DNA from: a virus
Length of the DNA stretch: 46,497 bases
Strand: one strand, 5' to 3'
UHGV virus genome: UHGV-1364979
The notes beneath the pieces were generated by a model. It was not told where the DNA came from. It made no database searches and saw only the letters and a program-made list of their open reading frames with translations. Shown here in pieces: positions 2,308 through 36,083 of the stretch (the stretch's first letter is position 1; each line of letters opens with the position of its first letter). Both the position numbers and the translations under genes were made by a program.

Positions 2308-2353
2308 CCATCACCTCACTTGTTATTGTCAGATGAATCTACATCAAACCACG

Positions 2354-2770
2354 TCATTCATCAAGCCCAAAATAGAATAACGTCGCTCTTTTTATCTCCT
2401 CAAGACCATAAGCAATAGCGCCAAAGTGACCCTCTGCAATGGCGCACTCAAGAACCTCAATCTGCGATGGCGATACTTTTGATTTTGTCTTGTCACGCCT
2501 CTTCAACTCAATCAGGCCGCATTTATGATTAATGCCGTGAGTTAGTATCACATTGTCGCTTACACCGCTCCTGACGCCCATTTTTCGGCGTTTTTCGATG
2601 AATTGCGGACCACTCTTTGTTCCAGTCTCGTTAGGCACATGAAACCACAGGACTTCAGGGAATCGGTATTGCATCCAAAGACCATAGGCCATCTGGTCAG
2701 TTTCCTCCCTTGGACACTCCCCGCGATAACCGCTATCAAATACCCACATTCCACTATCAAGCTGCTTCAA
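2354..2770 (-). CDS. VRR-NUC domain nuclease
   Basis: 138 aa. GVSDNVILTHG...CGLIELK resembles the VRR-NUC D..ExK core. TTG start at 2770 preceded by AGGAG. Overlaps the helicase stop. Confidence 0.7.
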   Translation of the reverse strand: MKQLDSGMWVFDSGYRGECPREETDQMAYGLWMQYRFPEVLWFHVPNETGTKSGPQFIEKRRKMGVRSGVSDNVILTHGINHKCGLIELKRRDKTKSKVSPSQIEVLECAIAEGHFGAIAYGLEEIKRATLFYFGLDE

Positions 2771-4715
2771 TTTGTTCTCCTATGAAATCCTTGCGGTGGA
2801 TGATATCGCGGCCTTTATCGTTAAAGCGATGCGTGATGCGCTTAGGCGCTCGGATTAACCCGGCGTAATGCATGAAAGTCTTCGCATCATGGCAGTCCAT
2901 CATTTTCTTCATCATTGATTTATCTTCCAGGTGCGGAAGCAGAGCCTTCATTTTAAACATGTCACGCAAGTGCTTTGGCTTTCCTCCGAACGGATAAAAC
3001 ACCTCATTTGCCCAGCCGGTCTTTCCATCAGCTTTCACCACCAGGTAACGATAAAGAACCCCTTCAGCGTCTTTGGTCAACTCTACTTTAAAATCTTGCA
3101 CATCTGTCCATTCTTTGTCCGTATAAGCGCGCTCATTAAGCGCCGCGTTAGGGTCGCGCAAAACGTGATCGCATTGACGGCAATAACGAGCTGTAGGGTC
3201 GTTCTTTGTGCCGCAACCATCATCAAAAATACGGATGCCGTGCTTGTCGAAACCACAGCGAATGAAGCTGAAAAACTCTTCGCATCGTCCATCTGGAGAC
3301 GTTGAGTCTTTACCGATGCAACGCCGTGCATATGGGCTGTTCATCGTCTGGCATTTAGGGCATGGAACCTGCTCTCCGCTGCGCTTGGCGCGCTGCGCTT
3401 CTGCTTCCTCAAGAATAGGGTCTTCGTACAGACCGCCCAACTCGAACATGGTTCCGGTGAAGTCAAGGCAAAGGTGGTTTTCTTTCACCAGACCTGCGGC
3501 AATCTGGTCAGGCTTTAAAAGGCGCATTGGTCGGCCAAGCAACTGCGTCAGAAGAGTCAGGGACATAATTTTTCTCAGGATGACAGACGTATCCCAATAT
3601 GGGATGTTGACGCCAGTAGTGAGGCAACCGATTTGCAGCGTGTATTTTTTACGCCCTGTGGCCGCATCTTTCAGTGCTTTCCGTCTGGCCTTCTGCCCCA
3701 TGTCCTCGGTAACAATGGAATAACTTCCTTCTGGTAAGTATTTTGCAGCCTCCTTGCAATGTTTCTTACCGGCGCAGGTAATGAGTACACCTAGTCTGTC
3801 GCGCGTAAGCTCCATGACTTTGAGCATGATTTTTTGTGTCAATGTACCCTGCTTGAGGATTTCTTCCTGCATCTCTTTTAGCTGGCTATCAGTGAAGTCC
3901 TGTACGCCGTCAACGTCACTACTGGCAAACTCATGCAGATCGTATTGCAAGTCTTCGATATCCTGCCCGCCAAAAATTGTCGGCACCAGAAACCCAAGAT
4001 CGACAAGGTATTTTGTGCTGATGTTGACGATTTCATGTTTCCAGTAAGCCCCCTTGATCGACTCAACGCCGCGAAATGGGCTTCCTGTATAGCCAATGAC
4101 AATCACCTCATGCCCATACTTCGCTTTACAGCGCCGGTTAAGTTCATTCATGATGACACCGTACTGCGTCTCTGGCTGCTCTGATATTATGTCCTGCCAG
4201 TTAACCTGATGGCATTCATCAACCAGTATGTAGCGCGGGGAAAAGTCTGATAACAGTGATTTCGTCACAGCGCCATCATCGGCTGTCTTATCAAAAAGAC
4301 CATTTATTATTGTTCCCTCCGTTCCCGCGATAAGCGGATAGGCATATGCCTTTCGCCCAAGGGACGCGCTAAACAGAGAGTTTTTTACGCTCAGATTCCA
4401 GAGTTCCTCAGCATCCTGCTCAATAATTTCGCCTTGTCGCGCGATGACAAGCCCCTCCCAACCCATATCCTGAAACCGACGGGCAATCATGGCTATCATG
4501 ATGGTCTTACCGGCGCCAACTGAAGCGGTAACATAACTTGGCTTGGGCTGCTTACCAAACTTGCGGATAACCTCAGCTGTCTTTTCATATACCAGCCACT
4601 GATAGGGGCGCGGTTCAATTTCCCCGGTATGGATGCTGGCCCGTAGCTTATCCATATCCAGCTCAGCAATCATTGCATCAATTTTTTGCACTTCATCCAC
4701 CTTTATGTTGCTCAA
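2757..4715 (-). CDS. SF2 (DEAD/DEAH-like) DNA helicase with C-terminal zinc-ribbon repeats
   Basis: 652 aa. Walker A ASVGAGKT, DECH box VDECHQV, helicase-C region, and C-terminal CPKC...RC / CRQCDH zinc fingers. The apparent start is a TTG at 4715 lying inside the promoter 13-mer. Confidence 0.85.
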   Translation of the reverse strand: MSNIKVDEVQKIDAMIAELDMDKLRASIHTGEIEPRPYQWLVYEKTAEVIRKFGKQPKPSYVTASVGAGKTIMIAMIARRFQDMGWEGLVIARQGEIIEQDAEELWNLSVKNSLFSASLGRKAYAYPLIAGTEGTIINGLFDKTADDGAVTKSLLSDFSPRYILVDECHQVNWQDIISEQPETQYGVIMNELNRRCKAKYGHEVIVIGYTGSPFRGVESIKGAYWKHEIVNISTKYLVDLGFLVPTIFGGQDIEDLQYDLHEFASSDVDGVQDFTDSQLKEMQEEILKQGTLTQKIMLKVMELTRDRLGVLITCAGKKHCKEAAKYLPEGSYSIVTEDMGQKARRKALKDAATGRKKYTLQIGCLTTGVNIPYWDTSVILRKIMSLTLLTQLLGRPMRLLKPDQIAAGLVKENHLCLDFTGTMFELGGLYEDPILEEAEAQRAKRSGEQVPCPKCQTMNSPYARRCIGKDSTSPDGRCEEFFSFIRCGFDKHGIRIFDDGCGTKNDPTARYCRQCDHVLRDPNAALNERAYTDKEWTDVQDFKVELTKDAEGVLYRYLVVKADGKTGWANEVFYPFGGKPKHLRDMFKMKALLPHLEDKSMMKKMMDCHDAKTFMHYAGLIRAPKRITHRFNDKGRDIIHRKDFIGEQIEAA

Positions 4716-4765
4716 TCTACGTCACAATAGTAGACTGAATCTACGGCAACAATCAAGGTTAAATT

Positions 4766-5641
4766 ATGCGATACGACTGGAAGGATATAGAGCCTTTAAT
4801 GGTAGGTAACTGGGAGGCTGCCCTACTCTCAATAGTGAATATTGACAGGAATGTTTTTACTGGGAAGCATCAACCATGCCCTCACTGCATGGGGGTTGAC
4901 CGGTTCCGTTGGGATAATCACTTCGAAACAAAAGGCGACGGCGGCGCCATCTGCAACCAGTGCGGAAGCGGCAGTGGAATCACCTGGCTAATGAAGCTGT
5001 CAGGAATGACGTTCCCAGAGTCAATGGAGGCACTGGCCGGATTTCTTAACATGCACCCGCGCGAAAAACTTGAGGCGATTAAAAAGCAACTACCAAAGGT
5101 TAACCATGCTTCTGACTACCTGACAGAGGAAGAAGTGGCGGCCATAATGGGAAAAGCAGGAGGCGACACTATAACCGGTAAAACTGGTGAGCTGGTGGCG
5201 ATACCACTATATATGGCTGGAACCATGACGCCATGCAATGTGGCTTTTATGGCTGATGATGAAACCGTGTCATTTCGCGCGGGTTTCAGCCATGAGTACA
5301 CTCGCGGAAGACTTACGCGCGGCGCAGTGACACCCATCGGAGATAAGACTGAATGGACATACCTGGTTGCTGATTATTTCGATGCCTGGAGAGCACACCG
5401 GCTTACTGGCGCCCATGTCTGGTGCTGCTGGTCTCCTGAGAATATGTGGGAAGTTGTGCGCAATGTGAGCGATGAGCAGCGAACCAAACTACGCTGTATC
5501 ATTAATAATAATTTCGATGAGGTATGCGCCGCCGAGAATGCAGGTCTTCCGATACTGATTACTGATGATGGTCAGGATATCCGTTACAGCGGCGCCATAA
5601 GAAAAAGGCTGTATAAACCAGAAGAGCTATTGAAGCACTAA
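4766..5641 (+). CDS. DNA primase (primase-helicase-type zinc ribbon plus TOPRIM-like region)
   Basis: 291 aa. N-terminal CPHCMGVDRFRW...CNQCGSGSG matches the primase zinc-binding ribbon. Located next to the helicase. Confidence 0.7.
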   Translation: MRYDWKDIEPLMVGNWEAALLSIVNIDRNVFTGKHQPCPHCMGVDRFRWDNHFETKGDGGAICNQCGSGSGITWLMKLSGMTFPESMEALAGFLNMHPREKLEAIKKQLPKVNHASDYLTEEEVAAIMGKAGGDTITGKTGELVAIPLYMAGTMTPCNVAFMADDETVSFRAGFSHEYTRGRLTRGAVTPIGDKTEWTYLVADYFDAWRAHRLTGAHVWCCWSPENMWEVVRNVSDEQRTKLRCIINNNFDEVCAAENAGLPILITDDGQDIRYSGAIRKRLYKPEELLKH

Positions 5642-5675
5642 AAAAATAAACCCTCCTGCCGGAGGGTTTTTGTTA
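5642..5675. terminator. bidirectional intrinsic terminator between the convergent primase and DUF3850 genes
   Basis: A-run, stem CCCTCC/GGAGGG (5651-5656 / 5661-5666) with loop TGCC, then TTTTT. Confidence 0.8.
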
Positions 5676-5906
5676 TTCCATGCTAATTAAAACGTAACCA
5701 GGAAGATACGAGCTTACATCAGCTATATGCACAATTAATTTATCAACCCTCTCCCCTGTGTAATCACCATCCCATTCATAAAGAGCAAGAATATCTCCAA
5801 CCTTAAAATTACGGTCGTTATTCCTTAGTTCAGCCCTCTTTAAACCATCAACAACAGGCCAAAAGTGTTGAGGTAATATTTTAAGTTCATGTACTTTGCT
5901 CATCAT
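5673..5906 (-). CDS. DUF3850 / ASCH-like domain protein
   Basis: MSKVHELKILPQHFWPVVDGLKRAELRNNDRNFKVGDILALYEWD matches the DUF3850 pattern (HELKI.P.YF...G.K.FE.R.NDR.F.VGD.L.L.E). Confidence 0.65.
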   Translation of the reverse strand: MMSKVHELKILPQHFWPVVDGLKRAELRNNDRNFKVGDILALYEWDGDYTGERVDKLIVHIADVSSYLPGYVLISME

Positions 5907-7456
5907 TTCAGTCTCGGATTCAGGTAAACAGTGTTATTAAGGAATACGCAATATCCATCTTCTTCAAGAGACGGCAAAACGTTTGACTTGAGTCTGTCAT
6001 AAATGTGCGGTATACCTTTGAATGGTCTAACGTTTTTTAGTGAATCATACAGCCATTTTACCGTGACATTTGTCTTTCCTTTTTGCGCAGCTGTACGCAA
6101 TTTTTCAGCAACAACGTCAATTTCTGATTTCTCGCCAGCGTATCCATTTGACTCAACGGCGTCGGTAAATGTTTTTGTTAGTGCATCATAAACGCTTATG
6201 GCGCGGCTTATATGCTCCTCACCAATAATTTTTGAGCGACGACCGCCATCGCACCAGTTTTCAGCGGCATGGAATATTGCTGAAAGCCTGATTATCTGTT
6301 TGTCAGCCTTACCCATGGCGCCACGAAGCAAAACGTGATCCCATTTACCACCTGGCAGGAAATTCTTTTCCCACTGGTTTCGTAAAAGTCCAATCATACG
6401 CTGAGATTCTTTAGCGAGGGAGAAAACAACCTTCTCAGAAGCCACAAGGTTATGCACAAATCTGGCATATTCTGCCTTTAGTTCTTTAGGCATTGGCTTA
6501 CTTACCGGGCAATCATTTTCAACATCCCAATGCTCACGATAACCCAACATCGACTGTTCACGAAGCATCAGGAATCGCTCTGACAATCCATTACCCCTGT
6601 CGCCAGCGGAAAGAATGGCATCAATACTTTCGTCCTGTGCAATGACGCTGATGTTTCCAAGTACGTAGCCAGATGAAACACCACGACCAACGCGAGCTGA
6701 ACCAACAAACCCGCCATCCCAGCCTTTAAGGATGACTTCGGCGTTAGACTTTCCTCCATCCTTGCCATACGAAAGTCCAAGACAGGTATTTAAAACGCTT
6801 GCCTCATCACTTATCAGGTTGAAAAAACCACCCTCATGAATTGCCTGGTGCTGCACCGCTTCTGGTGTTGCATCGGTTAACGGGTAGGTGATGGTGTAAA
6901 GACTTTCCAGTTTTTCCTTCTCTTTCGCGATATCATCTCCAATGATGGCCTTCGCGTTCTGGTTAGTTGCCTCCTTGTAAGCCTTCATCAGGTCTTCAAT
7001 GCGAATGTTTATCTTTACAATTTCCTTCTCCATCTTTTTTGACAGGTTGTCATACTCAATTTTTATCGGGTTCATATGCATTGAGTTGATGGCTGTCTTG
7101 CCAGCTGATGGCGGCTGCGACGTCACCACGTACAAGGAAACAGGCAATTCAGAACCGTAGTATTCAACGCTAAAATTTCGCGTCATGGCGCTGGCTACGC
7201 AGCCAAGCAGGTGCATGAATGATGTGCTAACTGGGAATTGCACAGCCCTCGCCGCTGCAACTGAGTAGCGCGTTATCAGGTCTTTCCTGTTATCGCTGGT
7301 AAGCTCTATCTCCGAGTATGTTACATCCTTCTCCTGCCCTTCCTTAATTTCCGGCCACATGTTATGGCTTGGCGTCATGCCATGATGAATGGCTACGCGC
7401 GCCGCTGAGGTGTGAGCCTCTCTTGCCTGGTTGAAGATTTCCTGTGCTGTAATCAT
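5903..7456 (-). CDS. large P-loop-containing replication-associated protein (DUF3987-like, as found next to phage primases)
   Basis: 517 aa. Walker-A-like SQPPSAGKTAINS. Position between primase and the ori-like region. Family assignment is from memory only. Confidence 0.4.
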   Translation of the reverse strand: MITAQEIFNQAREAHTSAARVAIHHGMTPSHNMWPEIKEGQEKDVTYSEIELTSDNRKDLITRYSVAAARAVQFPVSTSFMHLLGCVASAMTRNFSVEYYGSELPVSLYVVTSQPPSAGKTAINSMHMNPIKIEYDNLSKKMEKEIVKINIRIEDLMKAYKEATNQNAKAIIGDDIAKEKEKLESLYTITYPLTDATPEAVQHQAIHEGGFFNLISDEASVLNTCLGLSYGKDGGKSNAEVILKGWDGGFVGSARVGRGVSSGYVLGNISVIAQDESIDAILSAGDRGNGLSERFLMLREQSMLGYREHWDVENDCPVSKPMPKELKAEYARFVHNLVASEKVVFSLAKESQRMIGLLRNQWEKNFLPGGKWDHVLLRGAMGKADKQIIRLSAIFHAAENWCDGGRRSKIIGEEHISRAISVYDALTKTFTDAVESNGYAGEKSEIDVVAEKLRTAAQKGKTNVTVKWLYDSLKNVRPFKGIPHIYDRLKSNVLPSLEEDGYCVFLNNTVYLNPRLK

Positions 7457-7729
7457 TTAAACCTCATACTCGGTTGCAAATGATTCGTGTGGGTTTTCTG
7501 ATAGCCACTGCTTAGCTTTAAGTACGGCTGCGTTTGCCTCCTCTGCCGTATCGAACATTCCCAAATCATATCTTTTCTTTAAAACCATCACTCTGGCGCG
7601 GAACTTTTTTGATGCCTTGTGAAAATCAACACCATAGTATCCAGTCGTTGATTTTGGTGAAGCAACCCACCTTGCTCCACGTCCTTTATCATTCATTTTT
7701 CGCTTTAATAAAATTCCATGGTTACTCAT
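7457..7729 (-). CDS. standalone AP2 (Apetala-2-like) DNA-binding domain protein
   Basis: YYGVDFHKASKKFRARVMVLKKRYDLGMFDTAEEANAAV is an AP2 fold signature. The start was moved to the ATG at 7729, which has a GAGGGGG SD. Confidence 0.6.
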   Translation of the reverse strand: MSNHGILLKRKMNDKGRGARWVASPKSTTGYYGVDFHKASKKFRARVMVLKKRYDLGMFDTAEEANAAVLKAKQWLSENPHESFATEYEV

Positions 7730-8137: not shown

Positions 8138-8166
8138 TTGACGTAGATTGAGCGCCATCGTATAGT
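8138..8166 (+). promoter_or_regulatory. sigma70-type promoter TTGACGTAGATTG-N-TATAGT driving the rightward early block
   Basis: -35 TTGACG 8138-8143, 17-nt spacer, -10 TATAGT 8161-8166. This is the only rightward-oriented copy of the conserved 13-mer. Confidence 0.7.
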
Positions 8167-8190: not shown

Positions 8191-8382
8191 ATGAAAATGA
8201 CCAAAGCAATCTACACGCGCACTCAACTGGAGCCAGAAATGGGCGCAGTGAAAGCGCAAAACTTTATGATGGCGCAGGCGATGAATGCATACAGCAACGG
8301 TAAGCGCGTCTGTCGCGTTTTTATTGGAGAAGGAAAGCAGAGAGTGCTTGAGCAGGTTATCGTGTCATCTGGTGGAAACTAA
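8191..8382 (+). CDS. hypothetical early protein
   Basis: ORF with SD AAGAGG; the start is the ATG at 8191 or 8197. Confidence 0.45.
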   Translation: MKMTKAIYTRTQLEPEMGAVKAQNFMMAQAMNAYSNGKRVCRVFIGEGKQRVLEQVIVSSGGN

Positions 8383-8397
8383 ACCGGTTTAGCAACG

Positions 8398-8676
8398 ATG
8401 AATAAATTACTGGCAGTGGTTTTACTGATTATCGCTAACGCAGCAAGCGCTGAGACTATATGGGTCACGAAGTACGCGCTGACCCGCGGCATTCAAAAGT
8501 ACGAAAGCGCACAGCTATTTGCCGATGGTCAGGTGGCTGTGGTTGGCGATGTTTACTTTAAACGTGGTGAATACTGGCTTGATGAACAACAGGCAAAAGA
8601 GCATGCAGAGACTTTGCGGCAACGCCGTGTATCTGCACTGATGCGTGAGCTTGAGCGTTTGCAGGCTGTTAAGTGA
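8398..8676 (+). CDS. small secreted protein (signal peptide)
   Basis: N-terminus MNKLLAVVLLIIANAASA has a typical signal-peptide shape. Confidence 0.5.
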   Translation: MNKLLAVVLLIIANAASAETIWVTKYALTRGIQKYESAQLFADGQVAVVGDVYFKRGEYWLDEQQAKEHAETLRQRRVSALMRELERLQAVK

Positions 8677-8682
8677 GAGTTT

Positions 8683-9141
8683 ATGTATATCGAAATTAAA
8701 GAAGTTCAGGAAATTATTAAAAATCTTGAGAGTGGCGGTGAACTCTCAATCAAAGAGGAAAAATACCCAAAAGTTGCAAAGCTGTGCGTGCAGCTGGCGG
8801 CGGAGAATGCGGCACTGAAGTCAAAAGGCAAGGAATTGCTCGGCGAAGCATGCGCCGTGTACTCGAGGCTTAATAAAATTATTGATCCATCAATCGGTGA
8901 TTTTGTTGACGGTCAGACGCTCCATGAATTCCAGTTTGTTCTCAATGCGGAAACCCCCGCCACCGATCGCATCGTAGCCGGGATTAAGGCTGATGGGGTG
9001 GAGGCGTTCGCTGAAAGTCAGAAGGAATACGTTCGTCAGCATCGCAACGAAATGGACCAGGTGCTGCGTGCGGCTTATGCAGGGAGCGCAGTAGACGCTG
9101 AGAGATTCGCCAAGCAGCTGAGCGAGGGGGCAGACAAATGA
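8683..9141 (+). CDS. hypothetical protein
   Basis: 152-aa ORF on the same strand, closely packed. Confidence 0.5.
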   Translation: MYIEIKEVQEIIKNLESGGELSIKEEKYPKVAKLCVQLAAENAALKSKGKELLGEACAVYSRLNKIIDPSIGDFVDGQTLHEFQFVLNAETPATDRIVAGIKADGVEAFAESQKEYVRQHRNEMDQVLRAAYAGSAVDAERFAKQLSEGADK

Positions 9142-9542
9142 GCGACTTCGATACTTCATCAAAAGTTAAGGCTCGCAAGTTACATCGCTGCTGTGAATGT
9201 TACGGCGCTATTAATCAAGGCGATACCTACGAGAAAGCGTTTATTGTCCAGGGTGGCGATGCCAGCAACTTCAAGACGTGCCAGAAATGCGCAGAAGCGC
9301 GTGACTGGCTGCTTAACAAAACTGATTGGCCTGACGATATCGACGGAGATGGCCATTCGTATTTCTTCACGATGCTGCGTGACCACCTCCGTGAGCAAGG
9401 CCGTGAAGGCGACCGCAAATATGCATTTCGAGCGTATCGGCTTGTCGTCCTGATGGATAAGCGTCGCATGGCTTATGCCAATGCACACAACGCGGAGACC
9501 GTGAAAATCCGCGATTCTCTTGCTCAAGGAGACTCAGCATGA
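9138..9542 (+). CDS. hypothetical zinc-ribbon protein
   Basis: CCECYG...CQKC pairs. ATGA overlap with the upstream gene. Confidence 0.5.
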   Translation: MSDFDTSSKVKARKLHRCCECYGAINQGDTYEKAFIVQGGDASNFKTCQKCAEARDWLLNKTDWPDDIDGDGHSYFFTMLRDHLREQGREGDRKYAFRAYRLVVLMDKRRMAYANAHNAETVKIRDSLAQGDSA

Positions 9543-9937
9543 CAACTGATATCACCGAACTGGTGCTGATTACCATCAAAAATCAGATCAAAAGCTTTGA
9601 CAAGGTAGCGCTGAGAGAGAATGAAGCCCTCGCGCTGGTAGAGGCGCTGGAGAAGGCGCAGACCATCAACGCAGCAGCCGAGAAACTGGTCCGCTGCAAA
9701 GGCCGCTACCATTCCGAGCAGAACTACCGAGCACTGGCGGCGCTGTTTGGCGTGAACACTCCAGATCTGCCACCGCTGGATGACGAGTCCCACGCCGTCA
9801 CTGGAGAAAACCTGCAGGAGAGCGCCTACAGAGCTGGCTTAACTGCTGGCTGGAATCTTGGGCTGGCTAATAACAACGAAGGGTTCAATAAATGCCTGGC
9901 GGCTCATACTGCTGGCTTCAAGGTGAAGGCTGAGTGA
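9539..9937 (+). CDS. hypothetical protein
   Basis: 132-aa ORF with ATGA overlap. Confidence 0.5.
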
Positions 9938-10125
9938 TGAAAATGGGTGAACACATGGAGCCGGTTGTCGAGCTCCTGGAAGAACTGAACGGCAACAACA
10001 CCGACGCCAAATTGAAACTACTCGCCCTTGTTATCTCGGAATACATGCTTAATGCGGATGTTACTGGCTTTGAGGTCACCGCAGGGAAGATGAAAGTTTC
10101 CGTAGATATAAGCGTGGAGGAATAG
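9937..10125 (+). CDS. hypothetical small acidic protein
   Basis: ATG at 9937 overlaps the upstream TGA. Confidence 0.4.
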
Positions 10126-10129
10126 CCCA

Positions 10130-10651
10130 ATGACCAAATCAACCATAACCAGAGAGCGCCTGGAAAAAATTAAATCATGGCGTGAAACCTACGGCACCGG
10201 AAGCAACGTAATGCTGCCAGCTGAAGAAGCGGAAGAGTTGGCCTGCTTGGTGCTGGCCGCAATAGACAGCAAGCCGTTCGCATACATCATTCAGGACAAG
10301 TATGAAAGAGAGAGAGGGGTAGAGGGGCATCTTAGCCGCAGCCATGTATCGAAATATGTTAGCCAGGAAGACATTAATGATCACGAGATAACTTGCACGC
10401 CACTCTATCGCCACGCGCAGCCAGCGCTGGTATCTCTAACAGAAGCCCAGGTTGCTGCACTTGAGGAGGAAGAGAAGTCATTCCATGACGCGATAAGAAA
10501 ATGTATTGCTTCATTAAGGTACCACCATAAGCGAGCTGAAGCACATTCAACTGGTTACAAAGGCTCGACGCTTGAGGATGATACTTTGAAAAGTATTAAC
10601 TTTCTAAAAAGAAATATCACCACCGCCATGCTCAACGGAGGCAAGCCATGA
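10130..10651 (+). CDS. hypothetical protein
   Basis: 173-aa ORF. Confidence 0.5.
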   Translation: MTKSTITRERLEKIKSWRETYGTGSNVMLPAEEAEELACLVLAAIDSKPFAYIIQDKYERERGVEGHLSRSHVSKYVSQEDINDHEITCTPLYRHAQPALVSLTEAQVAALEEEEKSFHDAIRKCIASLRYHHKRAEAHSTGYKGSTLEDDTLKSINFLKRNITTAMLNGGKP

Positions 10652-10740
10652 AATCCTACCTCATCCGAAGGATTATTGCCGTATCAATGCTGGCATTCTG
10701 GATTGTTGTTGCTTTAGCTATCTGGTTTATTGTGAGGTGA
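10648..10740 (+). CDS. 30-aa hydrophobic peptide (MKSYLIRRIIAVSMLAFWIVVALAIWFIVR)
   Basis: ATGA-coupled to the upstream gene. One transmembrane helix. Not in the ORF track (under 60 aa). Confidence 0.3.
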   Translation: MKSYLIRRIIAVSMLAFWIVVALAIWFIVR

Positions 10741-10743
10741 TTT

Positions 10744-10902
10744 ATGCTGTGGAGCGATATTCAGGCTGCATGTGAGGAGGCTGACTTTCTTTATGAGGAG
10801 ACCGGAAAGCATCATGCCGTAATTCAGGTTGGCAGTATGATGATGGTGGTTGAGCATAACAGCATGCTTCGGCACATGTACTCAACGACGAGGTGTCAGT
10901 AA
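10744..10902 (+). CDS. hypothetical 52-aa protein
   Basis: An ORF fills the gap. Confidence 0.3.
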   Translation: MLWSDIQAACEEADFLYEETGKHHAVIQVGSMMMVVEHNSMLRHMYSTTRCQ

Positions 10903-11081
10903 TGCCGCAAAAATCAAAGCAGGAGGTGTGGAAGGCTGCGCAGATTGAAGGCGTCGACCACTTCATAGCAGCAATCGCCAAAGCCTTCCCTGATGCGATT
11001 GAGGTGGTTCACGTTAAATCCCCACGCAATGATTTGTGGTGCAGGAGCGGTAAGTGTGATGAAAAGAATAGACTGGAATGA
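10902..11081 (+). CDS. hypothetical 59-aa protein
   Basis: ATG at 10902 with SD GAGGTG 6 nt upstream. Confidence 0.4.
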   Translation: MPQKSKQEVWKAAQIEGVDHFIAAIAKAFPDAIEVVHVKSPRNDLWCRSGKCDEKNRLE

Positions 11082-11544
11082 GCTGTTTGAATACGACAAC
11101 GGAAATCTGATATGGCGGGAGGATACTGGCCGCAAGGCAAGAAAAGGTGAGGTTGCAGGCCACTCAGGGACAAAAGGATATACGTCGATTTGGTGCTATG
11201 GACGAAAATACTTTGCGCATAGAATTATATGGGAAATGCATAATGGCCCTATAACTGGCGGGTTGGAGATTGACCATGTAAACCATAACCCTGGAGATAA
11301 CAGGATTGAAAATCTCAGGCTGACAAATAGGGGAGGGAATCTAAAAAACAAATCTAAGTACTCCAGCAATAGTAGCGGAGTAACTGGCGTACACTGGAGG
11401 AAGGATAAGCGAAAGTGGCAAGCAAAAATAAGGGTTAACAAGAAGTTCATACATCTTGGATATTTCAACGACATACTTGACGCGGAGCTGGCAAGAAAGA
11501 AAGCAGAAGAAGAGTATGGGTTTCACGATAATCATGGTGTATAA
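11059..11544 (+). CDS. HNH endonuclease with C-terminal AP2 domain (homing-endonuclease-like), immediately upstream of terS
   Basis: EIDHVNHNPGDNRIENLRLTNRGGN is the HNH motif. GVTGVHWRKDKRKWQAKIRVNKKFIHLGYFNDILDAELARKKA is an AP2 domain. Start ATG at 11059 (MKRIDW) with an AGGAG SD. Confidence 0.85.
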   Translation: MKRIDWNELFEYDNGNLIWREDTGRKARKGEVAGHSGTKGYTSIWCYGRKYFAHRIIWEMHNGPITGGLEIDHVNHNPGDNRIENLRLTNRGGNLKNKSKYSSNSSGVTGVHWRKDKRKWQAKIRVNKKFIHLGYFNDILDAELARKKAEEEYGFHDNHGV

Positions 11545-11576
11545 TAGTTTCATTGATCATCACCTCGCCACCCTTT

Positions 11577-11605
11577 AAGCCAGCATCTCGCTGGCTTCTT
11601 TTTTA
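11577..11605 (+). terminator. intrinsic terminator after the HNH gene
   Basis: AAGCCAGC atctc GCTGGCTT then TTTTTT. Confidence 0.75.
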
Positions 11606-11616
11606 TCTACGCCATG

Positions 11617-11625
11617 TGTTAATAT
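11617..11625 (+). promoter_or_regulatory. extended -10 promoter (TGtTAATAT) for the packaging genes
   Basis: Preceded by ATCTACGCCATG, which is identical to 14294-14305. Confidence 0.4.
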
Positions 11626-11659
11626 ACTTGTATTCGGTTTACGAAAAGACGAAAACGAC

Positions 11660-12109
11660 ATGGCAAATCCAAATCCTATAATGAAGTTTTCTGCTGAATA
11701 CCAGCCAGCAGGAAGAGGTTTGAGCTACAGAAACAGGCTAATAGAAGCATTAAAACGTTGCGGGATGGGTGAAGAAGAGTTTCTTGATGCATTCATTCGC
11801 ACGTCAATAAGAATGGTGGAGGAAAATCCAACTCAGGGCGTGCAAATGCTGAAAGAAATATTTCTTCGCATTAGCCCCATGCAGAAGACAATGGCCCCTC
11901 CTGTTGAGTTCAAGTACCAGAAGGGTGCAACACCAGTGCAGCAGATTGAAGATGTCATTCAGTCAGTCTCGCTTGGTGAGCTTCCCATTGATGTTGCGTC
12001 TCAGGTTGTATCAATGATTAAGGTTGGCCTCGACGTCAAAGAGCTTACTGAGCTTGCCGAGAGGCTGGAGCGACTTGAGAAGATGATGGAGGGCGCAAAT
12101 GGCTCGTAA
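11660..12109 (+). CDS. terminase small subunit (putative)
   Basis: 149 aa directly upstream of and overlapping terL. Small helical protein with a coiled-coil C-terminus. Assigned by position. Confidence 0.55.
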   Translation: MANPNPIMKFSAEYQPAGRGLSYRNRLIEALKRCGMGEEEFLDAFIRTSIRMVEENPTQGVQMLKEIFLRISPMQKTMAPPVEFKYQKGATPVQQIEDVIQSVSLGELPIDVASQVVSMIKVGLDVKELTELAERLERLEKMMEGANGS

Positions 12110-13523
12110 ACGCCTCTCTGCACTGGCAATCGAAAAGCTGGAGGCGCAGGTGGATGATGCGATGACCGATGTTGCTGAGTCGGCCATCTTCGGTATCTGC
12201 GACATGCAGAAGAATGTCGTCAAGCGCCTCAGAATGACCGCTAGCGGCGTTGAGGATGTCACCCATGCAACTACGCAGGCAGATCACTTAATCCCCGCAA
12301 AACTCGAAAGGCTTCTTTATCCGAAGCGCAATAAGGTCGTCTTTGGTGGCCGAGCATCAACAAAGACCCGTACCGTGGCAACCATACTCACCGAGTCCGC
12401 GCGATTTAGGCCTGAGCGTATTGGCTGCTTCCGCGAAATTCAGCAGTCTATCGAGGACTCCAGCTATCAGGAACTGGTAGACGAAATCGACCGCAAAGGC
12501 GAATCATCGGAATATCGCTGCATCGACGGCAAGATAACCCACAAGCGAACGAAATCAAAATTCAGGTTCCGTGGCCTTTATCGCAACATCACCGGTGTAA
12601 AGGGGTTTGCCGGGATATCGAAAGCATGGGTGGAAGAAGCTGAAAACGTCAGTCAGGCATCGTGGGATATCCTTGAGCCGACCATCCGCGCGGAAGGGTC
12701 TGAGATATGGGTGACGTTTAACCCCAACAAAGAAACCGATGCCACATGGACTCAGTGGGTAGCGCCCTATTACGACAAGATGGTCGACGGCATCTATGAG
12801 GATGATGACACATTAATCATTGAGTGTAATTACCGAGACAACCCGTGGTTTTATGACACCCCGCTCCCGGCATCCATGGAGAAAATGAAGGCAGTCGACT
12901 TCGACCGCTATCTCTGGATATGGGAAGGAAAATTTAATAAACGCAGTGATGAGCAGGTATTCGGTGGCAAATGGCGTGTTGATAACTTTGAGGTAAAACC
13001 AGAGTGGCACGGTCCATATTTCGGTCAAGATTTCGGATTCAGTACCGATCCAACAGCAATGACTGAAGTCTACGTAGAGGATTTGCCTAATGACCGACGC
13101 AATGTTTATATTAATCGCGAATATGGAAAGGTTGGACTTGAGATTACTGATACCCCAACAGCAATGGAGCAGGCATTCCCTATGGCTAGAAAAGCCAGAT
13201 GGTATGGAGATTGCGCAAGACCAGAAACCATCAGTCACATCAAGCGCGCTGGCTTCGACATCCACCCATGCCCTAAATGGCCTGGTAGCGTTGAAGATGG
13301 CATTGCCTGGTTGCGTGGTTGCGACTCAATCATAATCCATGAGCGATGCAAGGAGATGCAAAGTGAAGCAGCCATGTACAGTTACAAGGTTGATAAAAAT
13401 ACAGGCGTAGTTTTGACTGACATCGTTGATGCGCATAACCATTTTTGGGATTCGTGTCGTTACGCACTTTCGGACTACATCGTACAGCGAGGCTCTGGAT
13501 GGATTAGAAGGAGCAGGAGATAA
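12099..13523 (+). CDS. terL: terminase large subunit
   Basis: 474 aa. Walker A GGRASTKT. Terminase ATPase plus RNaseH-like nuclease architecture. Confidence 0.9.
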   Translation: MARKRLSALAIEKLEAQVDDAMTDVAESAIFGICDMQKNVVKRLRMTASGVEDVTHATTQADHLIPAKLERLLYPKRNKVVFGGRASTKTRTVATILTESARFRPERIGCFREIQQSIEDSSYQELVDEIDRKGESSEYRCIDGKITHKRTKSKFRFRGLYRNITGVKGFAGISKAWVEEAENVSQASWDILEPTIRAEGSEIWVTFNPNKETDATWTQWVAPYYDKMVDGIYEDDDTLIIECNYRDNPWFYDTPLPASMEKMKAVDFDRYLWIWEGKFNKRSDEQVFGGKWRVDNFEVKPEWHGPYFGQDFGFSTDPTAMTEVYVEDLPNDRRNVYINREYGKVGLEITDTPTAMEQAFPMARKARWYGDCARPETISHIKRAGFDIHPCPKWPGSVEDGIAWLRGCDSIIIHERCKEMQSEAAMYSYKVDKNTGVVLTDIVDAHNHFWDSCRYALSDYIVQRGSGWIRRSRR

Positions 13524-13554: not shown

Positions 13555-13887
13555 TCAATTGCAAAGCTGAATGCTTTTCCATGTTTTAAATGGGACACCT
13601 ATCGCCTCCCAGAACTCCTTATCTTCAGCAGCAATTAATCTAAAAAAATCTCCCATCTTCCAATAAGAGCCATTTTTTATTGACTCACGCTCCTCGGTAA
13701 GTTTTTCAACAAAGTGCTCAGTCCATGTGCAATCTTCATCCCAATTAGATTTAACGCCGTTGTAGAGTGAGTAAATAAAGCGATCAACGTATGACGACTT
13801 ACTAACCTCAATCCCCATTAAAACCATATTTATTACGCGAACCGCATATAAGTTTTGTAATTCAGCAGTACGTTCTTGATATTGCAT
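13555..13887 (-). CDS. hypothetical protein (single-gene leftward island)
   Basis: 110-aa ORF. Own promoter (13934-13962) and own terminator. Confidence 0.5.
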   Translation of the reverse strand: MQYQERTAELQNLYAVRVINMVLMGIEVSKSSYVDRFIYSLYNGVKSNWDEDCTWTEHFVEKLTEERESIKNGSYWKMGDFFRLIAAEDKEFWEAIGVPFKTWKSIQLCN

Positions 13888-13933
13888 CTTTGCACCTCAT
13901 TCATTCTCGGCCCCGAGCCGCCTCAATGAATAC

Positions 13934-13962
13934 AATCTACATCAACCATGAATCAACGTCAA
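13934..13962 (-). promoter_or_regulatory. promoter TTGACG-N17-TAGATT
   Basis: Minus-strand reading TTGACGTTGATTCATGGTTGATGTAGATTG. -35 at 13962-13957 and -10 at 13939-13934. Confidence 0.6.
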
Positions 13963-13975: not shown

Positions 13976-14266
13976 TTATTTGTAAAGCCAGCAGTGAATC
14001 CCCGCATTACGCATGGCGGCATAAATCACATCATCAGAAACGACCGCCATTGCCACCCTGTCAGCGTCAACCTGCTGGTGCGAAGCCATGATGTCATCAT
14101 AGAAAGCATCGTTAGCATGCAGCCACTCATACGCATGCTTTGCCCTCATGATTAGGACGTCGTGCCCGGCAGAGTAGAGCGACTTAGCAAGCGCTACGTT
14201 GCCAGCAATAGCATTGCCTTCAGCATCGCGCAGCACACCATCAAGCTCAAAAATGACACATTTCAT
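13976..14266 (-). CDS. small HAD-like fold protein with ELDGVL in place of the DxDGxL nucleophile motif
   Basis: MKCVIFELDGVLRD... 96 aa. SD GGAG. Confidence 0.4.
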   Translation of the reverse strand: MKCVIFELDGVLRDAEGNAIAGNVALAKSLYSAGHDVLIMRAKHAYEWLHANDAFYDDIMASHQQVDADRVAMAVVSDDVIYAAMRNAGIHCWLYK

Positions 14267-14292
14267 AAGATTTCTCCGAGAGGTTTCATTTT

Positions 14293-14321: not shown

Positions 14322-14354
14322 GGCGCATTGACATAACTACATCACCGGGGCATC

Positions 14355-19136: not shown

Positions 19137-19181
19137 CTTGAATCCCCTGTGTTTGTGTAACTACATCATCGCTTACGATTC

Positions 19182-29143: not shown

Positions 29144-29401
29144 TTAGCCTTCATCATTAATGCTATGCAGTTTTCCACCGCAGAATGGGCAGAAGTTCAG
29201 GATTACAGGGCTGCCATTTCCTGACTGGTATGTAATTTTTTGCCCAAGAGATTCTCCAGTTGAAATCAACACAGAATGACCAGCAACCAGACCTTTGGTT
29301 TTTTTGTTGGACACATATTGAAGATATTCAGCCAGGTGCGCGCAGATGTTAGTAGCATAACGCTTCCCTTGGCTTGCGCATGGAATTAATTTATTTGTCA
29401 T
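29144..29401 (-). CDS. zinc-ribbon protein (N-terminal CxxxC...C..H, C-terminal CPFCGG)
   Basis: 85 aa. TGATG overlap with the parB-like gene. Confidence 0.45.
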   Translation of the reverse strand: MTNKLIPCASQGKRYATNICAHLAEYLQYVSNKKTKGLVAGHSVLISTGESLGQKITYQSGNGSPVILNFCPFCGGKLHSINDEG

Positions 29402-30216
29402 CACAGCTTCTCCAGAATCGCCAGCACTTCATTCAACTCCGCAGAAGGAAGGCGCAAAAATTCTTCTGTCTCCTGTGCTACATGGCCCTCAGCAACCACC
29501 ATATGATCTGCTTCTTTCAGCAACTGAATCAGGCGGTCAATCGGCTTAACTTTTTTGGCCTTGAGCGTTTTCGCAGTCACCTTATCCTTGCCCTGCGCTT
29601 TCGCTTCCTCAACAGCAGCATCAATAACGTTAACGGCATCATCGCCATGCTCACGCGCCACCGCAACGGCGTTGGCATAGCTGATTTGGCCTGCATTGAT
29701 GCGTTGCTTGATCGCATCAGGTACATGAACAAGTGACAGGTGCATCTGCACATCAGAAACTGAGCGACCTACTTTTTTGGCGATTTCTTCATTCGTCCAT
29801 CCGAACCCTTTCAGGCGCACATAAGCCTTTGCACGCTCAAGCGGGTCAAGCTGCTTGCCCTGACTGGATGACACCATGAAGGCGATTTTATCCGCTTCAT
29901 CGCCGGTGAAGTCTTTGCACTCAATGCGCACAATTGGCACGCCGCGCTCAATGGCACGCAATGCGCCAAGGTAACGATGCTGACCGTCAAGAATCTTGAT
30001 GCGCTTTCCGTCAGCATCAGGAATAACAGTTAACGCCGGGATTGGCTGGCCTGATTCCCAGCACTGCGCGAAGTATTCAACGTGCTGCTCATCGGCTTCG
30101 CGGATGTTGTATCCCGGTTCAAGATAAAGCTGGTCGACAGGAACCTGATAACCTTTGTTGACCACGATTCCGCCGCGAGTTTCTTTGTCTGAGTAAATTT
30201 TTCCGAGAGATGTCAT
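29401..30216 (-). CDS. ParB/Srx-like nuclease domain protein with C-terminal helical/HTH region
   Basis: ILDGQHRYLGALRAIE matches the ParB N-terminal domain motif. Start MTSLGKIY at 30216 with SD GAGGAAAAA. Confidence 0.65.
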   Translation of the reverse strand: MTSLGKIYSDKETRGGIVVNKGYQVPVDQLYLEPGYNIREADEQHVEYFAQCWESGQPIPALTVIPDADGKRIKILDGQHRYLGALRAIERGVPIVRIECKDFTGDEADKIAFMVSSSQGKQLDPLERAKAYVRLKGFGWTNEEIAKKVGRSVSDVQMHLSLVHVPDAIKQRINAGQISYANAVAVAREHGDDAVNVIDAAVEEAKAQGKDKVTAKTLKAKKVKPIDRLIQLLKEADHMVVAEGHVAQETEEFLRLPSAELNEVLAILEKL

Positions 30217-30627: not shown

Positions 30628-30667
30628 ATTCATCACCTCTAACATTTATTGTTGTTTCTACGTCATC

Positions 30668-30696
30668 ACTATAGCGACACCCTCAATCTACGTCAA
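30668..30696 (-). promoter_or_regulatory. sigma70-type promoter TTGACGTAGATTGAG-N-TATAGT (same architecture as 8138-8166)
   Basis: -35 at 30696-30691, 17-nt spacer, -10 TATAGT at 30673-30668. A second degenerate copy GATGACGTAGAAAC lies downstream. Confidence 0.7.
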
Positions 30697-32855: not shown

Positions 32856-33686
32856 ATTTGGTGCGCCGCTTCAACCGTGAATCTGGTGCCAGAATAACCT
32901 ATCTAAGATAGTTTATTTAGCATTGCAGTTCAGAGGATATCAGTTCGACGACTTTAGGGTGATCAGCCCATTTCATATGTATTGTTGTGGCCATGGTGCC
33001 TCCATGTTGCTGGTCGGTAAATCCAGCAGGCATAACAATTCACCAGTGTATCTCTACCTTGCCGCGTGCGCATAGCCGCATTACCACAACGATAAGAGCA
33101 CTGCACTTTGCTTCGTACTCCGTGGCAATCAAGTCCACCATGTAAACCTGCAATGCTCTTACCTGTTGTGTGTTGTGACTACTAACCCCGGAACTCATTA
33201 CCGCTCTTTGGCTCGACCTTTTTACAGGTTAGTGAGTGTTTTTCATCCGCTTGCACTCATTTTATTTGTTTTCGTCACAACGGAAATGGCACTTTCATCG
33301 CTGCAACATGACGGTAAATCGGATTCACTGCATCACGTACAAAATGCCATTTCCTGTTGTATGCCCTGACTTATTAATCACATCTCAGGGCCGCAATGCG
33401 CCGAATTCATTGACAAGGAATCGGAAGAACTTGCTGGTGTTTAGCCGTTAGGCTACTGCCAGATACATTTCTTCGTTTGCATTTATCTTTGTGGTCAGTT
33501 TCTAAAAACCCGCAAAGTCGCACCGAAAAATATCGGAAAGAGCACTCATTGCATCGACCAAACAGAATCGTCTTTTCGATTATGACTCTACTTTGACGGT
33601 TGCTCTGCTGCGCTAACCCAATGCCCTTACATGATAGTTGCCGGTTACGCGTCCGGCGTCTTTCGACCGCTAATTCGATCACTTCT

Positions 33687-33863
33687 TCAATTTTGCGTTG
33701 TAATGTCGCTACACCATGACCCTTTATCATGTGCGCCTGCGCATTTTAGCGCTTCGCCGGTATTCATTTTGAGTGATTCAGTTTCAATGTATGATTCACT
33801 CTTGCCTGGACTTACCTCAACGCTAAGGATTACCAGTAGCGACATTATAATTAACTCAACCAA
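33687..33863 (-). CDS. 58-aa hydrophobic N-terminus protein (TTG start after AGGAGG)
   Basis: SD AGGAGG at 33874-33869, 5-nt spacer, TTG at 33863. It lies downstream of the minus promoter at 33917-33889. Confidence 0.3.
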   Translation of the reverse strand: MVELIIMSLLVILSVEVSPGKSESYIETESLKMNTGEALKCAGAHDKGSWCSDITTQN

Positions 33864-33888
33864 GTTAACCTCCTGTGCTGTTGATTTA

Positions 33889-33917
33889 AATCTACACCAC
33901 CAATCAAAACCTGTCAA
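33889..33917 (-). promoter_or_regulatory. promoter TTGACA-N17-TAGATT reading leftward toward the tRNA
   Basis: -35 at 33917-33912 and -10 at 33894-33889. Confidence 0.6.
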
Positions 33918-34720: not shown

Positions 34721-34748
34721 AAAACCCCCGAAAGGGGGTTTATTTTTT
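34721..34748. terminator. strong bidirectional terminator
   Basis: AAAACCCCC gaaa GGGGGTTT then TTTTTT. Confidence 0.85.
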
Positions 34749-34925
34749 CAGCAATGAAGATACGCGGATTCTCCACAATGACAAGTTAGCGAGCGATACT
34801 GCTAACTCCATGTGAATCAATCTAAGTTTTTCAATATCAACAAAGACCGGGGCGTTGTATTGTTGATTGCTTCTTATGTACTTTGAAATAGTATCAGCAT
34901 CATTATTATCAAGAGTCATCATCAT
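34740..34925 (-). CDS. hypothetical protein
   Basis: 61-aa ORF. Confidence 0.4.
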   Translation of the reverse strand: MMMTLDNNDADTISKYIRSNQQYNAPVFVDIEKLRLIHMELAVSLANLSLWRIRVSSLLKK

Positions 34926-35214
34926 TCTCCTCTCTGATTGCAGTATCCAGTTGTCGACGCAACATACACAGCGCTCCGTGTGGCATAAACTGTGAAACCA
35001 TTCCGTCGAATATCTTCCGGTTTAATTTATTATCAATTCTCGGCCTGATTGCAGACCAGCATGACCTGATTGCGTGATTTACAGGCCTGCGGTCCAGCAT
35101 TGCGAGTCGTGCAGCTAACTCAATGGTAACGAGCGCGTCAAGATACTGCTCGCATGAGTAGCGTGATTCGTCATCCTCTTCCGTGGTTTTTATGGTAGTT
35201 AAGTTTTCTTTCAT
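34909..35214 (-). CDS. hypothetical protein
   Basis: 101-aa ORF. Confidence 0.45.
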   Translation of the reverse strand: MKENLTTIKTTEEDDESRYSCEQYLDALVTIELAARLAMLDRRPVNHAIRSCWSAIRPRIDNKLNRKIFDGMVSQFMPHGALCMLRRQLDTAIREENDDDS

Positions 35215-35683
35215 ATATCAATCTCGCCTTAACGGCATCGTCAAAGTTTACGTAGTAACCTATTGTTTTCTTTTTGCCATCAATTGATATTGAAGACTTC
35301 CATTTCCCAAACCTATTAATAAAACAAACGCCACTAACGCCGCTAGTATTGTTTTTTTGCCTTGGCCTGTTTTTCATATTCTCAGGCATTGACACATTTC
35401 TTAGATTTTCTATCCTATTATTAGTCCCATCACCATCAATATGGTCGATGTAATCAGGCCAATAACCATAATTCATAAACCATATTACCCTATGAGATTT
35501 GTAAACCTTGCCATCTATCCTTATGTTAATGTAAGACGTCTGATGATCTTTGCTTTTTGACTCCCAACCAGCTTTGCTACCTTTGACCTTCCTGGCGTAT
35601 CTATCAACATTCCATACGAGATAACCATCATTATGGTATGTGAACAGTTCATTAAGCCTATCAAGCGATACGTCTGTTAACAT
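35171..35683 (-). CDS. HNH endonuclease with AP2 domain (homing-endonuclease-like)
   Basis: IDHIDGDGTNNRIENLRNVS is the HNH motif. SGVSGVCFINRFGKWKSSISIDGKKKTIGYYVNFDDAVKARL is the AP2 domain. Start MLTDVS with SD GGAGTG. Confidence 0.85.
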   Translation of the reverse strand: MLTDVSLDRLNELFTYHNDGYLVWNVDRYARKVKGSKAGWESKSKDHQTSYINIRIDGKVYKSHRVIWFMNYGYWPDYIDHIDGDGTNNRIENLRNVSMPENMKNRPRQKNNTSGVSGVCFINRFGKWKSSISIDGKKKTIGYYVNFDDAVKARLIYERKLNYHKNHGRG

Positions 35684-35775
35684 TGAACACTCCATACACC
35701 ATCGAATACTATGTAACATATGACACTTGGCGCGGGTTTATCTGTCATCTATTTTTCTTCTCATCAAGCATCACC

Positions 35776-35892
35776 CTAATGCACCGCCATGTCAGTATAC
35801 GGAAGTCTTGATATGCAGTCGTAGTTGACCACAATTTCTGCAACACGTAAATTAATCTCAAAATCACTTATCTTGCTGTAATCAGTGCTCAT
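35776..35892 (-). CDS. 38-aa peptide
   Basis: ATGA-coupled ORF. Not in the ORF track. Confidence 0.25.
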   Translation of the reverse strand: MSTDYSKISDFEINLRVAEIVVNYDCISRLPYTDMAVH

Positions 35893-36023
35893 CTCTTATC
35901 CTCCACCACTACGCCAATCTTAGCCAGCAACAAAATAGCCTTTACGCGCGCCTCTTCATAGGTGTAACCCTGATCGATGTAAAGGTCGATGTAAAATCTC
36001 AAATCAGCATCAGTCTCGTTCAT
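35889..36023 (-). CDS. 44-aa peptide (MNETDADLRFYIDLYIDQGYTYEEARVKAILLLAKIGVVVEDKR)
   Basis: First ORF after the promoter, with SD TGAGGG. Confidence 0.3.
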   Translation of the reverse strand: MNETDADLRFYIDLYIDQGYTYEEARVKAILLLAKIGVVVEDKR

Positions 36024-36053
36024 ATGTCAAACCCTCAATCACCTTATGCTTTC

Positions 36054-36083
36054 AATCTACGTCAGTCTTGCGCCCCCTGTCAA
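36054..36083 (-). promoter_or_regulatory. promoter TTGACA-N18-TAGATT (13-mer variant CTGACGTAGATTG)
   Basis: -35 at 36083-36078 and -10 at 36059-36054. Confidence 0.55.

Follow-up and report, generated by a model that had tools for sequence, protein, structure and literature searches.

A 13-bp box at the putative early promoters of enterobacterial siphophages occurs in two promoter registers and is probably read by a phage protein

The DNA analyzed here is the virus genome UHGV-1364979, a stretch of 46,497 nucleotides referred to as the window. It carries an asymmetric 13-bp sequence, TTGACGTAGATTG, termed the box, which recurs ahead of its operons and forms part of the core promoter in either of two registers. 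The box sites are very likely promoters, and they would account for nearly all early promoters of the phage and its relatives. A phage protein probably reads the box, thereby co-controlling the early genes. With moderate confidence, it is proposed that host sigma-70 uses the box-marked early promoters and that a second, phage-encoded DNA-binding factor reads the box as a common shut-off device or tuner. By megablast, the closest matches of the window are Klebsiella siphophages of a Roufvirus-like cluster, with 88-95% identity over 60-85% of the sequence (Flyfo siphovirus Tbat1_6, the VLCpiS13 phages, KlebP_265, DP01, pIS4-A and pYD38-A). This affiliation replaces the T1-like one suggested in a first-pass annotation made from the letters alone. 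Shigella phage DS8 (Deseoctovirus) and Salmonella phage seszw (Skatevirus) are related more remotely. DS8, seszw and VLCpiS13d are designated L005, L006 and L207 where positions are given.

Eight copies of the box with at most one mismatch are present in the window, against 0.05 expected, a number reached by none of 100 shuffled sequences (Table 1). The genome-wide recurrence of the 13-mer, first noticed from the letters alone, is thus borne out. The core TGAYGTAGA occurs 10 times against 0.8 expected, and all 10 copies are intergenic, as had been claimed of the sites, in a window whose intergenic share is 8.7%. The most over-represented 10-mers of the window are TGACGTAGAT and GACGTAGATT (7 copies against 0.1). 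A position weight matrix (PWM) was trained on 12 window sites and used with a cut-off of 12 bits; 13 of its 15 matches in the window fell in the intergenic 8.7%, a proportion that is partly circular owing to the origin of the training sites. Three of the coordinates first given were off by one (4726-4714, 22086-22074 and 30697-30685); 13933-13945, filed as a half-site variant, is itself a one-mismatch copy. The box had been placed at every leftward operon start, which was too broad in one respect and too narrow in another: the leftward block 5673..7729 has no copy, and rightward units are headed by the box as well (8138, 22100). Throughout the window, the orientation of the box is that of transcription. 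That all sites point into an operon is trivially true in divergent gaps and non-trivial in the co-directional gaps 2308-2353 and 13888-13975; the tight distance to the start codon is another non-trivial sign of direction. Tandem copies are spaced by 10, 17, 23-24 or 30-31 bp. An exact 14-mer scan of IMG/VR returned mostly chance matches in unrelated contigs and was excluded from the statistics. The consensus sequences of host transcription factors (FNR, CRP, IHF, DnaA, LexA, PhoB and others) are not known to fit the box.

Table 1. Box promoters, extended -10 sites and candidate reader proteins of the window (≤1, copy with at most one mismatch to the 13-mer; added, copy absent from the list of the first-pass annotation)
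Feature	Position	Strand	Box copies	Promoter elements and context
Promoter of exoVIII / Erf recombinase operon	2335..2364	-	2335-2347 (TTGATGTAGATTC)	-10 register; TTGATG (2364-2359)-N17-TAGATT (2341-2336); -10 ends 28 nt before ATG at 2307; between two co-directional genes
Promoter region of helicase gene 2757..4690	4713..4749	-	4737-4749 (TTGCCGTAGATTC; added), 4713-4725 (GTGACGTAGATTG; ≤1)	Units 24 bp apart; proximal TAGATT ends 22 nt before start codon; no good upstream -35
Promoter of rightward block 8197..13523	8138..8166	+	8138-8150 (perfect; ≤1)	Unit as -35, N17, TATAGT 8161-8166
Promoter of 13555..13887	13933..13962	-	13950-13962 (TTGACGTTGATTC), 13933-13945 (TTGATGTAGATTG; ≤1)	First unit as -35, second as -10, tandem 17 bp; TTGACG-N17-TAGATT at 13962-13934; gap between two co-directional genes
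Promoter of 13976..14266	14292..14345	-	14333-14345 (GTGATGTAGTTAT; added), 14309-14321 (TTGACGTAGATTC; ≤1), 14292-14304 (ATGGCGTAGATTA)	Second unit as -35, third as -10; TTGACG-N17-TAGATT composite at 14321-14293
Promoter of island 17610..19136	19157..19222	-	19181-19193 (perfect; ≤1); degenerate 19210-19222 (added), 19157-19169 (added)	Perfect unit as -35, N17, GATGAT 19170-19165; degenerate copies flank the promoter
Divergent control region	22068..22112	-/+	22073-22085 (-) (TTGACGTAGATTA; ≤1), 22100-22112 (+) (GTGTTGTAGATTG; degenerate; added)	Leftward unit and degenerate rightward unit
Promoter of ParB-like island	30654..30696	-	30684-30696 (perfect; ≤1), 30654-30666 (ATGACGTAGAAAC; added)	Perfect unit as -35, N17, TATAGT 30673-30668; second copy just past -10, over predicted start site; conserved 5' untranslated region next
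Promoter of 33407..33863	33888..33917	-	33888-33900 (GTGGTGTAGATTT)	-10 register; TTGACA (33917-33912)-N17-TAGATT (33894-33889)
Promoter of island 34740..36023	36053..36083	-	36053-36065 (CTGACGTAGATTG; ≤1)	-10 register; TTGACA (36083-36078)-N18-TAGATT (36059-36054)
Extended -10	19202-19210	+		TGATAAAAT; lysis block; 8 bp from -35 of leftward 19181 promoter
Extended -10, same class	15186-15194, 30704-30712, 33920-33928, 36084-36092	+		
ParB/KorB-family protein	29401..30216	-		N-terminal ParB domain and helix-turn-helix; candidate reader
66-aa protein	21844..22044	-		First gene behind 22073 box; predicted winged helix; candidate reader
156-aa double winged-helix protein, annotated 'MarR family'	23361..23831	+		Weaker candidate reader

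In register A (8138, 19181 and 30684), the TTGACG of the box is the -35 hexamer and is followed, after 17 bp, by TATAGT or GATGAT; in a variant of this register, the -10 is the TAGATT of a second unit, 17 bp past TTGACG. In register B (2335, 4713, 13933, 14292, 22073, 33888 and 36053), it is the 3' half of the box, TAGATT, that forms the -10 hexamer; TTGACA, TTGACG or TTGATG precedes it by 17-18 bp at every site but 4713 and 22073, where nothing usable is present. Both registers are joined in the tandem units 17 bp apart at 13950/13933 and 14309/14292. The earlier suggestion that one unit can serve as -35 or as -10 was confirmed base by base, as were the TTGAYG-N17-TAGATT composites (2364, 13962 and 14321) and the two cases of TTGACG-N17-TATAGT (8138-8166 and 30696-30668). 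Sigma-70 hexamers with a 16-18-bp spacer and a -10 containing A2 and T6 were found at 8138, 13962, 14321, 19193, 30696, 33917 and 36083, and by hand at 2364; only the -10 half is present at 4725, 22085 and 22100. A generic sigma-70 scan gave no overall enrichment, and box sites were among its top-scoring matches (9-10 of 12). In both registers, and in DS8 and seszw as in the window, 22-40 nt separate the end of the functional -10 from a start codon that has a Shine-Dalgarno sequence. All 13 window sites have G3 and T5 in the -10 TAGATT, although neither base belongs to the sigma-70 consensus. Extra copies of the box lie over the -10 or the +1 of register-A promoters, either direct (30654) or inverted (L005 33143, in DS8).

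Conservation beyond the hexamers was measured on natural variants. With the ParB-like protein (29401..30216) as query, 79 loci were fetched from IMG/VR, in which the ParB-island promoter takes 65 distinct forms. Of these versions, 57 have the exact 13-mer and the other 8 a single substitution each; the remaining 10 bases of the spacer occur in 30 variants, and TATAGT is invariant. In mean column entropy, TTGACG stands at 0.02 bits, the spacer-resident TAGATTG at 0.11, the rest of the spacer at 0.87 and TATAGT at 0. The second copy, TGAYGTAGAAAC, is conserved in the 65 versions despite a 1-nt shift. At the 36053 promoter (36 versions), where the spacer holds the opposite half of the unit, CTGACG has an entropy of 0.08 bits against 0.63 for the neighboring spacer, both the -35 and the -10 being at 0; at the 19181 promoter (13 distinct versions), the unit is at 0 bits and its flanks at 0.45-0.6.

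Four genus-level lineages keep the box at orthologous promoters: the Roufvirus-like phages, Deseoctovirus, Skatevirus and an IMG/VR clade. In the cross-genus alignment of the 36053 promoter (A1), neither TTGAC nor TGA.GTAGATT varies, in contrast to the spacer. In that of the 8138 promoter (A2), TTGACGTAGA is invariant in six sequences with variable spacers; one genus has TATAGT as the -10 of this orthologous promoter, and the others have a second-unit TAGATT there, N17 remaining constant. The box is also retained in a clade (L196, L198) whose ParB is 67% identical and whose gene is placed elsewhere. The rescan of relatives that had been recommended gave 14-19 PWM matches of at least 12 bits per genome in six related genomes, against 2.8 in shuffled sequence, with 9-11 copies of the core 9-mer per relative; the unrelated Salmonella phage Jersey had no PWM match of at least 12 bits and no core 9-mer. 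The unit is therefore conserved beyond the needs of sigma-70, as had been supposed, and the contrary outcome, conservation limited to a plain -35/-10, is contradicted by both the variant footprints and the cross-genus alignments. Because the spacer half, for which sigma-70 has no base-specific need, is conserved across four genus-level lineages, the whole unit (core TGAYGTAGA) is under selection as a unit and appears to be a recognition site. Descent alone would be insufficient, since the flanking spacer bases vary freely in the 65 versions.

The proposed mechanism is as follows. Host sigma-70 polymerase would start at the early promoters that carry the box in register A or B. A phage DNA-binding protein seated on the box at -35, -10 or +1 would then occlude the polymerase, and this common repressor or tuner would close the early operons together: those for replication and recombination, that of the ParB island and those of the small-gene islands. 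With the box occupied, the adjoining extended -10 promoters of the late structural operons could be freed as well. An occluding protein is favored over an activator or an appropriated sigma factor because the box is found at -35, at -10 or over +1, and the latter two agents need a fixed position. The extra copies over the -10 or +1 (30654 and L005 33143) likewise fit an operator better than a promoter element. A trans-acting reader that represses would thus exist, in the form of the ParB/KorB-like protein, the 66-aa winged-helix protein or the double winged-helix protein, and this one factor would make the box promoters a single regulon.

The ParB/KorB-family protein matches the Pfam families HTH_ParB (8e-12) and KorB (1e-5), and its sequence matches in the PDB are Spo0J, ParB, Noc and KorB. 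It is 81% identical in DS8 and seszw, against 63-80% for the terminase, and the promoter of its own gene holds two copies of the box. Loci with a ParB protein of 42-50% identity (L202-L206, phage ep3) have neither the box nor another dispersed repeat; this set is distant and uninformative. A repeated parS-like palindrome was considered as an alternative target of ParB, and no such family is present in the window. A perfect 18-bp palindrome, TTTAGCATTAATGCTAAA, lies at 46164-46181 and is found only in the window, KlebP_265 and DP01; its arms match those of the KorB operator. In DS8 and seszw, TTAGCAGCTAA stands upstream of the major tail gene. In the 89-kb contig L206, which encodes a distant ParB homologue, 14 tandem 27-bp repeats unrelated to the box (7798-8160) lie about 2 kb upstream of the ParB gene and may form a centromere-like or iteron-like array.

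The 66-aa protein was modeled by AlphaFold2 with a mean predicted local distance difference test score (pLDDT) of 80.7 and a topology H-H-H-beta-beta. The top PDB fold matches are mostly winged-helix proteins (Z-alpha, the CggR DNA-binding domain, the Rpc5 winged-helix domain, ORC and the RuvB winged helix). It is 52-54% identical in DS8 and seszw and belongs to phrog_14963, whose function is unassigned. The box at 22073, behind which its gene comes first, sits within a palindrome with perfect 9-bp arms, TTGACTAAT..ATTAGTCAA (22068-22093), of which TTGAC-N16-GTCAA is kept in DS8, seszw and VLCpiS13d. This palindrome may act as a dyad operator of its own on the divergent promoters before the gene of the predicted 66-aa winged helix. 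The degenerate rightward copy at 22100 has a perfect box as its counterpart in seszw (L006 1240+).

The third candidate, 23361..23831, had been put forward in the first-pass annotation. It is indeed a double winged-helix protein (Pfam HTH_24 at residues 5-47 and HTH_34 at residues 73-117; phrog_1687), which was folded without alignment with a mean pLDDT of 54; its divergence between genera and its loss from a seszw mutant, detailed below, speak against its being the reader. For the other protein proposed there, 21052..21264, Pfam gave no hit, and pIS4-A, DS8 and seszw are all without a homologue; it therefore cannot read a motif shared by the whole family.

Several observations weigh against the proposed reader and its mode of action. 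VLCpiS13d, a viable natural isolate, has lost all but the first 25 codons of its ParB-like gene (L207 15149-15223) and keeps every box; the ParB-like protein is thus dispensable for plaque formation. Palindromes are the usual targets of ParB-family proteins, and the box is asymmetric, with no dyad beyond ACGT. The fold search with the 66-aa protein gave no significant match (E ≥ 0.8), so that its winged helix is a prediction only. The double winged-helix protein is 36-39% identical between genera while the box is unchanged, and the viable seszw mutant 210S lacks the homologous gene 7; genes 3-10 form one of the large fragments lost in seszw mutants (PMC9825161). Two of the three candidates are therefore dispensable in relatives. 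The box itself is always oriented with transcription, which a pure occlusion operator would not need, and no helical-phase rule is apparent in the tandem spacings. In strong phage early promoters, those of T5 for example, shared sequence is known to extend beyond the hexamers with no extra factor involved. In the literature, a full-text search for the motif string returned unrelated primer hits only, promoters are not treated in papers on Roufvirus, Skatevirus and Klebsiella phages, the motif was in no paper found, and neither transcript 5'-end nor binding nor expression data were found for this phage group.

The precedent of T5 lends some credit to an explanation that dispenses with a dedicated factor, which is nonetheless unlikely. 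The sites would be plain strong sigma-70 early promoters, whose extra bases reflect optimization for the polymerase (spacer/upstream -10 contacts, promoter clearance) together with descent of a shared cassette. A workable sigma-70 geometry can be drawn at every site, both halves of the unit resemble consensus hexamers, and no essential reader gene was found. Against this, the same 9-13 bases are conserved at -35 to -23 or at -18 to -6, which no single polymerase contact explains; the G and T of TAGATT are invariant although non-consensus; the flanking spacer is free to vary in the 65 versions; and four register-B sites are without a usable -35.

Absence of a -35 at some register-B sites would also suit a quite improbable alternative, in which the 12-13-mer is a complete promoter for a polymerase modified by a sigma-like or appropriator protein, or a box bound by an activator, so that the box alone would recruit the polymerase. 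Models for such a modification are T4 MotA/AsiA, phiEco32 gp36 and T4 gp55. The register-A box spans -35 to -23 with its center near -30, like a MotA box, the box always points along transcription, and several conserved small early proteins are without an assigned function. The two registers are incompatible with a fixed-position activator, and canonical -35 hexamers with an invariant TATAGT at N17 point to ordinary use of sigma-70. No sigma, MotA or AsiA domain was detected among the 30 proteins scanned, to which PHROGs added nothing, and the early genes must fire ahead of any phage protein. The first-pass annotation had left the choice between a phage-encoded factor and sigma appropriation; the former is favored, and the latter is disfavored by the two registers and the canonical -35 hexamers. 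It is very improbable that the boxes are ParB loading or partition-like sites (for condensation or silencing) or recombination linkers for cassette swaps, their promoter position being secondary: the unusual conservation of the encoded ParB/KorB-family protein, the two copies at its promoter, the mosaic junction at that promoter and the island-less three units of DS8 (both described below) are outweighed by the asymmetry of the box, the lack of a repeated palindrome in the window, the retention of the boxes in VLCpiS13d without ParB, the absence of such a motif from phages with remoter ParB homologues, the shortness of 13 bp for homologous exchange and the tight start-codon distance, which argues for the promoter role as primary.

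Two arrangements of box units relate to the islands. At 30628-30696 and in loci L128-L201, about 70 bp comprising the promoter and the 5' untranslated region (AACAACAATAAATGTTAGAGGTGATG) are almost invariant, and the first open reading frame behind them differs by phage; this appears to be a mosaic junction at a regulatory cassette. In DS8, the 76-bp gap that follows the terminase gene holds three units 23 bp apart (L005 28791-28826 and about 28770), directed into the 3' end of that gene; no leftward gene is present there, and the window has two at this place. The three units appear to be what is left of an accessory island that was lost.

The + strand of the window carries the late and structural genes, into which minus-strand islands (replication, recombination and small accessory genes) break, and convergent junctions are marked by G+C-rich hairpins. 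Ahead of the late + strand blocks (portal, lysis, connector, major-tail and tail-assembly) stand extended -10 sites, TGnTAWAAT, that have no -35. This motif has 10 matches in the window against 3.9 expected, 9 of them on the + strand. Four of the sites stand back-to-back with leftward box promoters, at 0-8 bp from their -35, an arrangement that is kept across genera; TGnTAAAAT is conserved with a variable n in the 65 versions, and ATTATAnCA is invariant in A1. The register-B box is centered near -40 of the late start. As polymerase cannot hold both promoters at once, silencing of the box promoter could release the late one, and from this geometry the box may have a role in an early/late switch. 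A more ambitious proposal is possible, if doubtful: the asymmetric 13-bp box, a -35-like hexamer fused to a -10-like one, would be the pivot of a genome-wide early-to-late switch found throughout this family of enterobacterial siphophages, in which the 66-aa or the ParB-like protein, bound to the box wherever this is part of an early promoter, would switch off every early operon simultaneously and so release the overlapping late extended -10 promoters or activate them from about -40.

Elsewhere in the window, a 400-bp non-coding stretch (7730-8137) has a very A+T-rich core of about 200 bp bordered by TGGGGCA/TGCCCCA boxes (7818, 7829, 7843, 8061 and 8075), and may represent an origin of replication or a region used in packaging. 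The 10-mer TGACGCCATG / CATGGCGTCA occurs in 5 copies against 0.08 expected (5226, 19737, 21775, 31158 and 43883), all in coding sequence, and is probably a codon-usage effect. A tRNA was the sole match of the window in an Rfam search.

Siphophages of Klebsiella, Salmonella, Shigella and E. coli are isolated in large numbers for therapy and biocontrol, and the timing of their gene expression is apparently undescribed. An identical box at about ten promoters per genome, stable across genera, gives a handle on the early regulon. It could serve as a DNA-affinity bait for the regulator and as a marker that tells accessory-gene islands from late operons, and the box promoters would be portable, possibly switchable parts for phage engineering. 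If the box does gate the abutting late promoters, it would constitute a very compact early/late switch.

Among known systems, the stoperators bound by gp71 of mycobacteriophage L5 are 13-bp asymmetric sites with a -35-like hexamer, present in many copies in short intergenic gaps and in one orientation to transcription. The box has the same length, asymmetry, -35-like hexamer, many intergenic copies and single orientation. L5 is temperate, and most of its stoperators block elongation from within transcription units, the early-promoter site overlapping the -35. In contrast, all strong copies of the box overlap core promoters: each of the 10 core copies falls on a predicted one, and no core copy is found between co-transcribed genes where promoter geometry is lacking. 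The window phage showed no integrase or repressor gene, a gp71 homologue not having been sought.

The RK2 KorB regulon and ParB-family silencing are paralleled by the presence of a ParB/KorB-family helix-turn-helix protein and of about a dozen identical short sites at or near the promoters of several operons, including its own. The KorB operator of plasmid RK2 and parS are palindromes of 13-16 bp, unlike the box, and a natural isolate without the protein keeps the sites. The cytidine triphosphate-binding signature of 29401..30216 is DGQHRYLGA, against GERRxRA in the KorB/ParB consensus.

As with lambda operators, bases of the box form part of the -10 or -35; the -10 of lambda PRM is itself TAGATT. 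In phi29, p4 governs an early/late switch at divergent promoters from sites upstream of the late promoter, and the box promoters, early ones standing back-to-back with late extended -10 sites, would similarly allow one bound protein to shut one and favor the other. Lambda operators have dyad symmetry and serve the lysogeny switch, whereas the box is without a dyad; no CI, Cro or p4 homologue was detected, and the switch role is drawn from geometry only.

T4 middle promoters combine a MotA box centered near -30, which normally replaces the -35, with appropriation of sigma by AsiA. Register-A sites alone resemble them, with a box near -30 and a sigma-70 -10. The box differs in occurring in two registers, at -35 and at -10, in containing a canonical -35 and in heading genes that would have to be expressed first, and the 30 proteins scanned include no member of the MotA or AsiA families. 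Each of these designs (L5, KorB, lambda, phi29 p4 and T4 MotA) thus shares some features with the box and fails at least one defining feature. The box is an undescribed, phage-specific promoter/operator box of a familiar kind, the unusual trait of which is its use in two registers.

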